Below, piece after piece: positions 1 through 4,337 of a stretch of 4,337 nucleotides of DNA (position 1 is the stretch's first letter; each line of letters begins with the position of its first letter). The translations under genes and the position numbers were made by a program. Below the pieces are notes generated by a model. It saw only the letters and a list, made by a program, of their open reading frames with translations. It was not told where the DNA came from and ran no database searches. The stretch lies in the IMG/VR virus record IMGVR_UViG_2609459830_000011, positions 1-4,337 of that record; one strand, written 5' to 3'. The DNA comes from a virus. Taxonomy: Duplodnaviria > Heunggongvirae > Uroviricota > Caudoviricetes.

Positions 1-309
1 CCCCGGGGGCCCGGTTCCCCCTCCCGGCCCAGCCACACCTGTTTCTCCTTTCGGTCCCTGTGGGCCTGCCGGGCCTGCTGCCCCGGTGTCTCCCTTTGGA
101 CCCTGTGGACCTGTACTTCCTGTCAGCCCGGTCTCTCCCCGCTCTCCCCTGTCGCCTTTCGGCCCCTGCGGACCTGCCGGACCAGCATCACCTGCCGGTC
201 CCCGTTCGCCGGTTGCCCCGACAGGGCCGGTGTCACCGCGCTCTCCCTTATCACCCTTCGGCCCCTGAGGACCCGCGGGCCCCTGTTCCCCCTTTGGCCC
301 GGGAGGTCC
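1..309 (-). repeat. Collagen-like Gly-X-Y coding tract, at least 34 uninterrupted triplets (Stf aa 251-353+), with imperfect ~100-bp-period direct repeats
   Basis: Seen in sequence: translation reads [103 protein letters not shown] with Gly at every third residue. The DNA shows recurring near-identical blocks (plus ~48-77, ~155-183, ~255-285; e.g. cctttcggtccctg / cctttcggcccctg / ccttcggcccctg) encoding repeated GPQGPKG units. The tract continues past the window edge. Confidence 0.85.
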
Positions 310-1059
310 CACCACGGTGGGGATTCGGTTTACGGCCTCTTCCGCCGCTATCCTGCTTTGTTCCGCTGACTGTGCGCTTTCTGCTGACTCCCGGGCTTTT
401 TCTGCTGCGGTCGTTGCATCCCTGGCTGCATTACCGGCTGCACTTTCTGCCGTCTTTTTTGACAACTCAGCATCTGTTGCACTTTGTAATGACTCACTGG
501 CTTTTTGAGCGGCCGCAGAGGCCGAGGACGAGGACGCCTCCTCTGACTGCTTTGCAGCGGCTGCACTTTCTGCCGCCTGCCGGGCTGACTCCGATGCATC
601 CCCTGCTGAAGTGTCAGCATTTGCAGCGCTCTCTTCTGCCTGACTGGCTGATATGCCGGCATTCCTCGCTGACGTCTCCGCCTCTCCGGCATTCTTCTTC
701 GCCTCCTCAGCGTGACGCGCCGCTTCTTCCACCATCAGTTCAAAACGACGCAGTGCCTCCGGCCGGACGTCATCCTCCGACATGGCACCGAGAAAATCAT
801 TCAGCGTCCCCGGTTGAGAATCTTCATACACGGTGATGGTCCCGGCATGTGACGGAGGAAATCCCTCCACCAACAGAATGACGCTGTACTGACCGTACTC
901 AACATCCATGCTGTAACGTCCGGCTTCATCCGGATTTTCAGAGGCCACCGTGTTCACCACCACCGTGCTGCTGGTTCGTCTGGCCTTCAGCACAATGGTG
1001 CAGTTCTGTACTGGTTTTCCTGTGCCATCTTTAAGCACGCCAGAAATTTTTACTGTCAT
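1..1059 (-). CDS. stf: Side tail fibre protein Stf, N-terminal 353 codons (partial; 3' end runs beyond window position 1)
   Basis: Seen in sequence: reverse-complement translation from ATG (plus 1057..1059) is stop-free for 353 codons to position 1, starting [93 protein letters not shown]. This closely matches my recollection of the N-terminus of lambda Stf (orf-401), not verified by alignment. It is followed by an Ala/Ser/Glu-rich segment and then a Gly-X-Y tract. Position directly downstream of lom on the same strand matches lambda gene order. Absent from the ORF track because there is no in-window stop. Confidence 0.85.
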
Positions 1060-1071: not shown

Positions 1072-1106
1072 ATAAAAAAAGCCCGCAGCAGTGACGCCAC
1101 GGGCTT
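1072..1106 (-). terminator. Rho-independent terminator downstream of lom (minus-strand orientation)
   Basis: Seen in sequence: minus-strand RNA would read GCCCGUGGCG-UCAC-UGCUGCGGGC, roughly a 10-bp stem including three G-U wobbles, extendable by flanking A/U pairs, followed directly by UUUUUUUAUU (plus 1071..1080 is aataaaaaaa). On the plus strand the A-run precedes the hairpin, so it terminates minus-strand transcription only. Lies ~105 bp downstream of the lom stop and ~15 bp upstream of the stf ATG. Confidence 0.6.
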
Positions 1107-1135
1107 CAGGACAGTGTAACTTTACGTTTCCTCAA

Positions 1136-1210: not shown

Positions 1211-1810
1211 TCAGAAACGGTATCCGATACCAACAATAAATGCATCCGATCGCCAGTCGCCACTACCGGAACCTTCATAAGCAAGGTCAATGGTCACGGA
1301 TTCGGTCGGGTTAAACTGCACGCCAGCCCCCCACGCCAGAGACGTGTTGCTGTGGCGACCGTCATCACTTCCGGTCAGCACATCGTGCGTTTTCCCCTTG
1401 TTGTCAGTTACGCGGAGATAATCCCCGGAGAAAGTCGACACACGGCTGTAAGCCACACCCGCCATCGCATACGCGCTGAACCATTCATTCACGCGTACAG
1501 ACGGCCCCGCCATCACGCTGAACCAGCGGTTACGCACGGAATCTTCATGCCAGCGGGTATCGCTGTAGCGCGTTTTTTGCTCATCCTCAGCATTGGCATA
1601 ACTGAAGGACGTAATCAGCCCCAGCGCGTCCATAAACTCATAACGGTATTTCACGTTAATCCCGTTCAGATCATCACTACCGGGAACGTTCGTCGAGGCA
1701 TGGAGATACCCCGCGCTCAGCGTGGACTGATGTTCTGCTGCACTCGCTGGCGTAGCAGCGGCGACCTGCCAGACTACTGCGGACAAAATAACAGCACATA
1801 ATTTACGCAT
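1211..1810 (-). CDS. lom: Outer membrane protein Lom (Ail/Lom/PagC family 8-stranded beta-barrel), complete, 199 aa
   Basis: Seen in sequence: complete ORF from ATG (plus 1808..1810) to TGA (1211..1213). N-terminal signal-peptide-like segment MRKLCAVILSAVVWQVAAATPASA followed by AEHQSTLSAGYLHA. Internal motifs NGINVKYRYEF, SVMAGPSVRVNEWFSAYAMAGVAYSRV, AWGAGVQFNP, AYEGSGSGDWRSDAFIVGIGYRF and a C-terminal aromatic residue (F) typical of OMP beta-barrels. Closely matches my recollection of lambda Lom (not verified by alignment). Located between J and stf as in lambda. Confidence 0.92.
   Translation of the reverse strand: MRKLCAVILSAVVWQVAAATPASAAEHQSTLSAGYLHASTNVPGSDDLNGINVKYRYEFMDALGLITSFSYANAEDEQKTRYSDTRWHEDSVRNRWFSVMAGPSVRVNEWFSAYAMAGVAYSRVSTFSGDYLRVTDNKGKTHDVLTGSDDGRHSNTSLAWGAGVQFNPTESVTIDLAYEGSGSGDWRSDAFIVGIGYRF
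1739..1810 (-). other. Predicted Sec signal peptide of Lom (aa 1-24, cleavage likely after ASA)
   Basis: Seen in sequence: basic N-terminus (MRK), hydrophobic core (LCAVILSAVVWQVAAA), then ASA|AE consistent with an AxA signal peptidase I site. The exact cleavage position is an inference. Confidence 0.55.
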
Positions 1811-1815
1811 AATTA

Positions 1816-1821
1816 CCTCTC
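1816..1821 (-). promoter_or_regulatory. Shine-Dalgarno for lom (GAGAGG, ~5 nt upstream of the ATG)
   Basis: Seen in sequence: minus-strand reads AAGCGAGAGGTAATT-ATG. Confidence 0.5.
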
Positions 1822-1834
1822 GCTTTTCTGCAAT

Positions 1835-1858
1835 AAAAAAGGCGCCATTTCTGGCGCC
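1835..1858 (-). terminator. Rho-independent terminator between J and lom (minus-strand orientation)
   Basis: Seen in sequence: minus-strand RNA would read GGCGCCA-GAAA-UGGCGCC, a perfect 7-bp GC-rich stem with a GNRA-type tetraloop, followed by UUUUUUAUUG. Lies ~20 bp downstream of the J stop. On the plus strand the A-run is upstream of the hairpin, so it is not a plus-strand terminator. Confidence 0.65.
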
Positions 1859-1877
1859 CGTATCTGGGTTATAAAAT

Positions 1878-4337
1878 TCAGCTGATACTGATACCTGCTG
1901 TGGATTTTTTCATCACCACAACCAGCAGATCGCTGATACTGGTTGTTGGTGTCCAGTTATTCGCTCCTGATGAAGATACGGTGAATGTCAGTGTCAGCGT
2001 CCCCTGTCCGGCAGGCATATCTATAACTGAAGAAAATACGCCCTGAGCATCCGTCGTGGACTGATTAAAAATCTCCTGACCATTGCGGGTCACTCTTAAC
2101 CGGCAGGTTGAATACCAGTATGACTGTTGGTTATTACTGTTGAAATTCTCATGCTTACCACCGCGGAATAACACTGGCGGTATCATGACCTGCCGGTCAA
2201 ACTTCTGATCATCACTGATTCTTACCGTGATGGTGCCACTGGCATAAGTGCTCGTGCGGGGGAAAGACTTGCTGACCGTTTTGACAATATCGCCTTCAAT
2301 CTGGTTGGCTGACAGTTTCCCCTTAATCTGACAGTTCTCATTAATCGTGACGTTGTTGAGCGTCCCTGAGTTCGCATTCACACTGCCACTGATATCCGCA
2401 TTTTTCGCCGTCAGTCGCCCGTCCGGCGTCAGGGAAAACGTCGGGGGGTTGCCGGATGACGTGATACTCACCGCAAACAGTCGTTTCAGGAACACGTCGT
2501 TCATGAACAGCTGATTCCCCTGCGCCACAAATAACGGCGTGCTGTTGCCGCTCTCCGGATTTATCATCGCGATACGGTCAGCCAGCAGCAGTATGTTGCT
2601 CAGTGGCTGGCCATCAGTATCCTCAATCCCTGCACCAATCCCGGCCACATAGGGAATGCCGTCTTTCGTTTTTTGAACCTTCAGCATGTACAGCGCAGCC
2701 AGGTCATCATTTGTGTCCTTCTGCACGCGCTGTATCTGCTGTATGGTGGCGCTCTGGTTCTCCAGTGTTTTGTTGACCGTCTGTGTGATTTCATTGCGGG
2801 TTTCCGTGATGCTGGTCTTCATCTCCGCCATCTCATCTGCAAGCTGGCTGTTATCTATCAGTTCCCACAACCCCTGAGCCAGATGCAGTTTTCCTATTTT
2901 TTCCCGGAAAAATTCCAGATACCCTTCACCATCATTGCTGGGCTGCCCGCTGACTTCCACAAACGCAGATTTCCCCACCAGGTTGACGCTGCGCACGTAA
3001 AACCAGAAATCCTTCCCGGGCTTAATGTGCGGGCCGGATACACTCCACTGACTGCCGGTCCCCAGATAACGGGCAGAGGTTTCCACCTGAGATGTGTCTG
3101 CGATTTTTGCCTCCGAAAACCAGAATTCAAACTGTACCGTCGGGTCATATACAGCCAGTTTCGGGACCGCCGTTATCTGAAAATAGCCCGGTGTCAGCTC
3201 AATCTGTGACGGCGCTGCCGGTGCGGCAATCCGGAACGATACCGACGCCGGATCGCCCTGCTGCCCCCACGCATTTACCGCCCGGACTGTCAGCCTGTAG
3301 CTCCCCGGCGCCAGTTGCGTGAAGCGGTATGTGGTTTCCGTCGTCCGGGCCGTGCTGACCAGCCGCTCACTGCCGTCATCCGCGGCCACGGTCAGGCGAA
3401 GCATAAAGCTCACGCCCTTCACCACCTTCGGCGTGTCCCATTTCGCCTGTGCCAGATACTGACCGTCAGCTGCGCTCACCTCCACCGTCAGGTGCTGCAC
3501 TGCCGGAGGGATGACGCTGTTCAGGGTGCCTGACTGCGGCTCAAAGCTGGCCCCGTTATCCACGATGGCTTCCTTTTCCGGTACGTGCTGCACCGCCGTG
3601 ATGGCAAAGGTACCGTCCGTGTTTTCCCGGATGGAAACACAGCGGAACAGGCGACGACGCAGTGACGGCAGGGAGAGTCCCCATACACCGTATGTCTCCA
3701 CACCATCAGGCAGGGTGCTGACCTGTATCCGGTCCGGCGCGGGGTGTGCAGTGATGGCCACGCTCACCGGCTTACCGCTGCCGTTAATCAGGTTCACCGT
3801 GGCGGCACCGGTCTCCGGCAGGGTCACCTCACGGTCCAGCGTCAGGGTGCGGCTGGCGGCATCGATGGACAGGACACGTCCGCCGGTCATGGTCCCGGCA
3901 TAGTCGTTATCACAGATTTCAATAATGTCACCGGGTGTGTGACGCAGCCCCTGTGACCCGAGCGTGAAATCCACCGTCTGCGTTTCCAGCAGTCCGGTCT
4001 TTATCACCCACAGCCCGGCACGGTGGGCCTGACCGCGACTGGTGCAACCGAACGCATCCATCTTCAGCAGGTTGCGCCCGTAGCGCAGTATGGCTTCCGG
4101 GTCTTCCACCAGTTCCGTGGAGGTCTGCCAGCCGTTCTGCGGGTCGGTGTAATTCACCTCCACCGCCGTGTGGCGGTCCTTCAGGGCGCTGAAGCTGTAG
4201 CGAAACCCCACGCCGTTATCATCCACCACCACATCGCTGTTGGTGTACGGCCACACCACATCCGACTGGCGGTCCTGAACGAACGTCAGCGTCTGGCCGT
4301 TCCATACCGGCATACAGCGCATCGCCGAGCAGAAATC
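1878..4337 (-). CDS. J: Tail tip / host-specificity protein J (central tail fibre), C-terminal ~819 codons (partial; 5' end lies beyond window position 4337)
   Basis: Seen in sequence: the minus-strand frame is open from the window edge (4337) to TGA at 1878..1880. The first in-frame codons read [23 protein letters not shown], so the Met at 4322 is internal. Landmarks matching my recollection of lambda J (not verified by alignment): [51 protein letters not shown], fibronectin-III-like segment [86 protein letters not shown]. Ends GISIS. Confidence 0.93.

Follow-up and report, generated by a model that had tools for sequence, protein, structure and literature searches.

The left end of the window, by which we mean the whole 4,337-nt stretch of DNA analyzed, lies within an open reading frame (ORF) encoding a long collagen-like sequence. 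The locus raises the questions of which protein carries this sequence, how far it extends, and whether its length is set by repeated DNA units. All three genes of the window were found on the minus strand: J, the tail tip attachment protein gene, of which the C-terminal 819 codons are present (positions 1878 to 4337; Pfam Ig_J, Phage_Tail_Tip, and Ig_GpJ_C); lom, encoding an Ail/Lom outer-membrane beta-barrel (1211 to 1810; PF06316, Ail_Lom, E = 2.5e-123); and an stf-like ORF (1 to 1059) that starts at an ATG (1059 to 1057), stays open for 353 codons, and runs off the left edge. The J-lom-stf order is common to lambda and to E. coli lambdoid prophages, Stx phages, and EHEC prophages, and the whole window gave hundreds of matches to E. 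coli lambdoid prophages and Stx phages at 90 to 97% identity. Plus-strand ORFs covering the collagen tract (e.g., 60 to 836, 258 aa) were also considered and judged to arise as antisense by-products, the sequence being GC-rich, periodic, and poor in stops.

An intrinsic-terminator-like hairpin with a T run (1078 to 1107, minus strand) is located downstream of lom and ends 19 nt before the stf ATG, and a Shine-Dalgarno-like GGTGGA lies between this hairpin and the ATG. Because the hairpin separates lom from stf, expression of stf would require read-through from the late operon. A second terminator-like hairpin with a T run follows J (window positions 1840 to 1859, minus strand). With such hairpins after both J and lom, lom looks like a self-contained inserted cassette. 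The three parts of the window also differ in their closest relatives. Its J is 96.9% identical to that of an O111:H8 prophage (L001), in which the lom-stf spacer measures 64 nt, while lom, the 151-nt spacer, and stf together are 97.4% identical to L012. The best relative over the collagen tract is L003 (NZ_CP148374), which is identical to the window over bases 29 to 309 and has a J that is only 82% identical. By these identities the window is, to all appearances, a mosaic when positions 1060 to 1220 are set against 1221 to 4337, with J, lom-stf, and the collagen tract each closest to different prophages. A look-up with the exact Lom protein returned relatives at 87% (L004 to L011 and L013) and 97% (L012) identity.

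We consider it highly probable that positions 1 to 1059 (minus strand) hold the opening 353 codons of a side tail fibre gene of the EPclA type, an stf homologue carried by an EHEC-type, lambda-like prophage of E. coli. EPclA proteins are composed of PfN, PCoil (116 aa), Col (typically 111 aa), and PfC, for a total of 437 aa, and seven to nine copies are present per O157:H7 genome (Ghosh et al. 2012, PMC3368898). The first three of these modules were recognized in the window. The prophage tail fibre N-terminal domain PfN occupies aa 1 to 133 (661 to 1059, minus strand) and matched PF08400 with E = 7.4e-69 and 230 bits against a cutoff of 26.6. Within it, aa 1 to 93 (781 to 1059, minus strand) aligned to residues 1 to 93 of the collar domain of Ur-lambda Stf (PDB 9E7M chain Ta) with E = 9.4e-53 and about 90% identity. 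Together with the collagen family match described below (PF01391) and the J-lom-stf order, PF08400 bears out an earlier proposal, made in a preliminary description of this DNA, that the collagen-type shaft belongs to a lambdoid side tail fibre.

The second module, PCoil, is a segment of 117 aa rich in Ala, Ser, and Glu (aa 134 to 250; 310 to 660, minus strand), which we delimited by composition, Ala periodicity, and an AF2 helix. Ala accounts for 32% of its residues, Ser for 19%, and Glu for 13% (64% together), and only 8 of its 117 residues are LIVMFWY. The autocorrelation of Ala peaks at lag 7 (0.37) and lag 14 (0.30). In an AF2 monomer model, computed from an alignment of 30 sequences whose first entry was the 350-aa relative P0071, PCoil forms one long helix with pLDDT values of 78 to 90. 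This helix is the only confident part of the model, whose mean pLDDT is 54, with PfN, Col, and PfC all below 50. PCoil is predicted to be an alpha-helical coiled coil that is trimeric, and it agrees with the PCoil of EPclA (PMC3368898).

The third module is the collagen (Col) domain, which spans aa 251 to 353 (1 to 309, minus strand), matched PF01391 with E = 6.8e-15, and runs off the window edge. Glycine occurs at every third residue 35 times running, from aa 251 (window position 309) to aa 353 (window position 1), which amounts to 34 Gly-X-Y triplets plus one Gly, and no stop interrupts the 353 codons. Such a run lies far outside what chance would give, and the initial count of at least 34 consecutive triplets over aa 251 to 353 is correct. 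The X position is occupied by Pro in 50% and by Asp/Glu in 32% of the triplets, and the Y position by Lys/Arg in 29%, Thr in 24%, Ala in 21%, Gln in 15%, and Pro in 6%. These preferences match the EPclP values in Table 4 of PMC3368898. When the full-length nearest homologue was compared with collagen chains in the PDB, vertebrate chains were matched with E values down to 1e-69 and BclA only weakly. The DNA of the tract has a GC content of 72%, and the tract is multicopy, with a median of 9 places per genome carrying it.

The outermost bases of the tract do not share this close agreement with relatives. Positions 1 to 28 (minus strand) form an anomalous terminal stretch with six private substitutions, which change GPV GAT GPQ into GPG GGT GPP and keep the Gly register. 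Among 13 aligned loci, private sites numbered six in bases 1 to 28 versus none in the 281 nt of bases 29 to 309 (Fisher p = 3e-7). When the left-end sequence was compared with 5455 homologous places in complete E. coli genomes, the best match was 42/48, and no exact match to the left-end 36 to 48 nt was found in viral, genome, or metagenome contig collections. The substitutions are therefore absent from all 5455 complete-genome places and from three exact-match scans. The leading explanation, to which we give about an even chance, is that bases 1 to 28, and perhaps the window edge itself, reflect an assembly or sequencing artefact where a short contig broke off inside a multicopy GC-rich repeat, the tract as a whole being real. 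The copy number and GC content of the tract, and the finding that the identical Lom protein resides mostly on 2- to 10-kb contigs, are in line with such a break. Against it stands the fact that all six changes preserve an open Gly-X-Y frame, and the stretch may instead be a genuine private or rare variant. A useful by-product of this comparison is that the window's last 28 bases look unreliable; GC-rich multicopy tracts of this kind probably break short-read assemblies.

Since the C-terminal end of the gene lies outside the window, we inferred its intactness and the type of its C-terminal domain from relatives. L003 encodes a 437-aa protein that ends in PfC (PF06820, E = 1.7e-34) followed by a stop. 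The GST and GVA variant triplets of the window are common to four of the fetched loci (L003, L020, L033, and L041), and in these four the tract ends 8 residues past the window edge and is followed by a 64-aa PfC, a stop, and an 89-aa ORF consisting of PfC only. By homology, the part beyond the edge would comprise just 8 residues of collagen plus about 76 others, and no large receptor-binding domain is expected. Furthermore, no intact tfa was found downstream in the homologous loci, which hold at most a 93-nt tail-assembly pseudogene. The expectation that a large receptor-binding domain and an adjoining tfa would be found leftward is accordingly at odds with the homologues, which end with a 64-aa PfC and are without an intact tfa.

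The place of tfa in lambda is taken by the 89-aa PfC-only ORF (PF06820, E = 9e-35; positions 4475 to 4744 of L003 and 5474 to 5743 of L001), which is separated from stf by a single nucleotide in nearly all relatives. Its product may be a spare tip, a capping subunit, or a chaperone. In the proteins P0024 and P0025 (494 aa), a frameshift has fused stf to this ORF. Directly downstream of the fibre genes, the homologues carry type III secretion effector genes (nleL, espN, nleG, nleF, and an ospG-like kinase gene), which were located at 1 to 5258 in L001, at 1738 to 3234 in L003, and beyond 6400 in L004 to L013. The position downstream of the fibre genes is a known effector-cargo site of EHEC lambdoid prophages.

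Frame loss in relatives raises the possibility that the window gene, too, is a defective remnant, either a cryptic-prophage pseudogene or a gene truncated or frameshifted just past the edge, in which case the tract would no longer belong to a fibre. Defective copies are common: EDL933 and Sakai have entries labeled EPclA* that have lost their frame (PMC3368898), a frameshift divides the phi330 copy in two, and P0080 and P0024/25 have been either frameshifted or fused. The window's divergent last 28 nt could likewise be the sign of a disrupted end. On the other hand, the ORF runs for 353 codons without a stop and the scores of its domains are undiminished, none of the six private changes breaks the Gly register, and relatives of the same haplotype are mostly intact 437-aa genes. 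We therefore regard a defective gene as improbable.

We also asked which repeats the tract contains. The element that recurs is a 24-nt block encoding GPQGPKG(D/E). On the minus strand, GPQGPKGD is encoded at positions 250 to 273 (copy 1, aa 263 to 270), 151 to 174 (copy 2, aa 296 to 303), and 88 to 111 (copy 3, aa 317 to 324), and GPQGPKGE at 43 to 66 (copy 4, aa 332 to 339); copy 1 is a recurrent indel junction in homologues. The blocks are spaced by 99, 63, and 45 nt and share 18 to 21 of 24 nt in pairwise comparisons, with exact identity over only 5 to 17 nt. In addition, DNA alignment revealed two adjoining 9-nt units, GCAGCAGGC and CCGGCAGGC, at positions 63 to 81 (minus strand), which encode ..AAG PAG... 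No Chi site (GCTGGTGG), which could act as a recombination stimulator, was found within the window.

We then compared the length of the tract among relatives. The number of Gly in register ranged from 8 to 38 among the best 120 cluster representatives and from 27 to 39 among the full-length tracts of the fetched loci, in which 37 dominates. Fibre length therefore varies among related prophages, as had been anticipated, the overall range being 8 to 39 Gly in register. This agrees with Ghosh et al. 2012 (PMC3368898), who tabulated Col lengths of 27 to 144 aa that differ by multiples of three. Written as triplets, the variants resemble cassettes bounded by the GPQ-GPK block. With at most 3 aa mismatches, the 28 shorter PfC-class variants could each be derived from the 37-triplet form by one in-register deletion, and 14 distinct deletions sufficed for all of them; variant P0044 needed 5 mismatches for a single-deletion fit. 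In this sample of 90%-identity cluster representatives, which are non-independent events and for which the direction (deletion or insertion) is assumed, the deletion junctions were ambiguous over a mean of 2.57 equivalent triplet positions versus 1.45 expected for random in-register deletions of the same size. Only 1 of 20000 random sets reached 2.57. This difference indicates that breakpoints are enriched in repeated triplets, including GER, and such quantitative evidence that length variants break at repeated triplet blocks is a modestly useful by-product of the analysis.

Unit-wise slippage was seen only for the 9-nt GPA unit at positions 63 to 81, which is present in 0, 1, 2, or 3 copies in homologues with 36, 37, 38, or 39 Gly in register, respectively. 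This copy variation has the sequence signature of classical small-unit slippage. The exact identity of 5 to 17 nt between motif copies is too short for efficient RecA-dependent intragenic recombination, so that exchange between full-length paralogues or replication slippage would have to be invoked. With a median of 9 tract places per genome, slippage within the gene is no more plausible than exchange among the paralogous copies in different prophages.

The coiled-coil segment, too, seems to change its length at short repeats, in steps that are not in every case multiples of seven residues. A 21-nt direct repeat encoding ..AESAA.. is present in the PCoil DNA at positions 435 to 455 and 558 to 578, the two copies being 95% identical and 123 nt apart. 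Variants of 396 aa (P0019 type) carry a 41-aa (123-nt) deletion whose size and flanks match this repeat exactly.

These results led us to consider a bolder reading, in which the GPQGPKG(D/E) codon blocks and the 9-nt GPA unit serve, beyond any structural preference, as built-in recombination joints for resizing the shaft (in steps from about 7 to 41 nm) and for swapping C-terminal knobs among the paralogous prophage copies of one EHEC genome. The junction bias is compatible with it, but we hold this reading to be speculative and rather unlikely. If it were true, selection might match shaft length to the thickness of the host surface layer.

The preliminary description had attributed length change to the repeats, and this stood in substance: length does vary between prophages and the junctions favor repeated triplets, but the substrates are short blocks rather than units of about 100 bp. 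The existence of near-identical units of that size was not borne out. The best-aligned pair of 99-nt units is identical at 64 of 99 nt (65%) and at 23 of 33 aa, including 11 obligatory Gly, and the longest exact direct repeat in the 309-nt tract is 11 nt. A repeat finder gave a maximum of 80% identity over 56 nt at a spacing of 99 nt. Tandem Repeats Finder detected no array with a period near 100 in the tract, only weak 9-nt arrays, and both this result and self-comparison of the tract speak against such units. A weak 99-nt periodicity is nevertheless present: identity at a shift of 99 was 58.5% versus 48.4% in triplet-shuffled controls, and 58.5% was reached by 6 of 5000 shuffles. Such a periodicity resembles what an old duplication would leave behind more than it does a set of near-identical units.

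A VNTR-like array, in which near-identical ~100-bp units are gained or lost as wholes via slipped-strand mispairing, is thus a very improbable account of the tract. The 99-nt periodicity and the 56-nt stretch of 80% identity at 99-nt spacing would fit such an array, as would P0001, P0024, and P0105, three variant types for which the difference to the 37-triplet form is exactly 11 triplets (99 nt). However, no period near 100 was detected, the motif spacing is irregular (99, 63, and 45 nt), and indel sizes vary widely (1, 5, 11, 12, 16, 17, 18, 21, 22, 23, and 29 triplets). Together with the 65% identity of the best unit pair and the exact repeat of only 11 nt, this largely refutes the array.

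Based on an EPclA-type fibre, we propose the following working model. The protein would be a homotrimer of four modules: a collar, a coiled coil, a collagen helix, and a PfC knob. As judged from the roughly 90% identity, the N-terminal collar would clamp the fibre to the junction of tail tube and tip as in Ur-lambda. Next would come the 117-aa Ala/Ser/Glu-rich three-stranded coiled coil and then a hinge leading into an uninterrupted collagen triple helix, so that coiled coil and helix may together form a hinged two-segment rod. By analogy with the EPclA protein ECs2717, whose collagen melts at 42°C, the tract in the window probably does form a triple helix. At a rise of 0.288 nm per residue (PMC3368898), the collagen segment would measure about 30 nm in the window and about 32 nm if it ends like its closest relatives (37 Gly in register, 111 aa), compared with about 7 nm for 8-triplet variants. 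The C-terminal PfC knob, outside the window, would trimerize, nucleate the triple helix from the C terminus, and probably contact the cell surface. PfC at the tip is thereby a candidate surface-binding element, and the collagen segment would act as a rigid spacer that sets the reach of the knob. We infer the attachment geometry, the receptor binding by PfC, and the recombination mechanism, the first two from homology and from the discussion of Ghosh et al. In that mechanism, the short dispersed repeats of the tract DNA (five 24-nt GPQGPKG(D/E) blocks, GPV-GAT, GER, and the 9-nt GPA unit) would favor deletions, duplications, and exchanges between the prophage copies of one genome, which would give rise to discrete fibre lengths.

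Fibres of the EPclA type probably have a part in determining the range of bacteria open to adsorption by the lambda-like prophages of EHEC, among them those that convert to Shiga toxin production. By probably shaping the adsorption range, they would also bear on the spread of virulence genes. For the window gene itself, we see little significance beyond correct annotation.

Comparison with known systems places the protein more precisely. In the Ur-lambda virion, 12 Stf collar domains form a ring where the tail tube meets the tip, and this ring bears four trimeric side fibres (PMC12617516). The window protein resembles Ur-lambda Stf (P03764; PDB 9E7M/9MGH, PMC12617516) in its collar, which is about 90% identical over aa 1 to 93, in the place of its gene after lom, and in its expected form, a trimeric side fibre with a hinged shaft. 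The shaft of lambda Stf, however, is a long coiled-coil and gp37-like fibre in a protein of 774 aa, with Pf2 repeats, an OmpC-binding tip, and the chaperone Tfa, whereas the window protein combines an Ala-rich coiled coil with a collagen helix and, in its relatives, a 64-aa PfC knob without an intact tfa. Neither the window protein nor the full-length relative matched the Pf2 repeat family (PF03406). The window protein thus appears to have the attachment module and the role in common with Stf, without being orthologous to Stf over its full length.

A second group of relatives, of the EPclD type or ending in Peptidase_S74 (e.g., SbBS512_E1096, P0002, and P0087; from Shigella and E. coli), shares PfN, PCoil, and the first triplets, including GPQGPKGD, with the window at 85 to 94% identity. 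Unlike the PfC class, with which the window haplotype groups, these proteins end in an intramolecular chaperone (PF13884) instead of PfC, and their collagen contains duplications of the seven triplets GAP-GPK-GDK-GDP-GVA-GPA-GPA. Proteins with window-type PfN, PCoil, and first triplets joined to a Peptidase_S74 end (P0002 to P0016 and P0082 to P0096) were found in Shigella and some E. coli, and in P0068 window-type N-terminal modules are joined to an unrelated C terminus. Since the switch to the S74 or other C terminus takes place inside the collagen tract, the tract is also a joint for tip swapping.

Similarly to the window protein, Scl1 and Scl2 of Streptococcus and BclA of Bacillus anthracis have hydroxyproline-free Gly-X-Y triple helices, a globular trimerization domain that nucleates them, and a length that varies between strains. 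A comparison of Scl2 with EPcl proteins was drawn in PMC3368898. Unlike the window protein, Scl1/Scl2 and BclA are anchored in the cell wall or exosporium, have different flanking domains, and are not parts of a virion; their Y positions are Thr- and Gln-rich and their X positions contain less Pro (Table 4, PMC3368898). That the window gene encodes a bacterial surface adhesin or virulence factor of the Scl or BclA type which is merely located in a prophage is barely credible: collagen-like surface proteins do exist in bacteria, one database record labels relative P0015 "SclE," and BclA is a weak PDB match, but the protein has no signal peptide or anchor, its N terminus is the Stf collar domain resolved on Ur-lambda virions, and its gene lies in the tail block after J and lom.

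The closest known system is EPclA. Recombinant ECs2717 (437 aa, from E. coli O157:H7 Sakai) is a trimer, its CD spectrum is that of collagen with melting at 42°C, its PfC is a trimerization domain that renucleates the triple helix, and by electron microscopy it appears as a hinged dumbbell (PMC3368898). A GP(Q/P)-GPK-G(D/E) triplet pattern has been reported as recurring in EPclP collagen (PMC3368898). The window protein is like EPclA in its PfN-PCoil-Col order, its X and Y preferences, this triplet pattern, and its location in the tail region of a lambdoid prophage. It differs only in that the window stops, by homology, 8 residues short of the end of Col, leaving PfC unseen, and in that its last 9 residues differ from those of all relatives. 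The judgment that the tract is not novel in kind thus holds, EPclA having been described before (PMC3368898); the protein type, the triple helix, the recurring motif, and the length variation were all already published in 2012.
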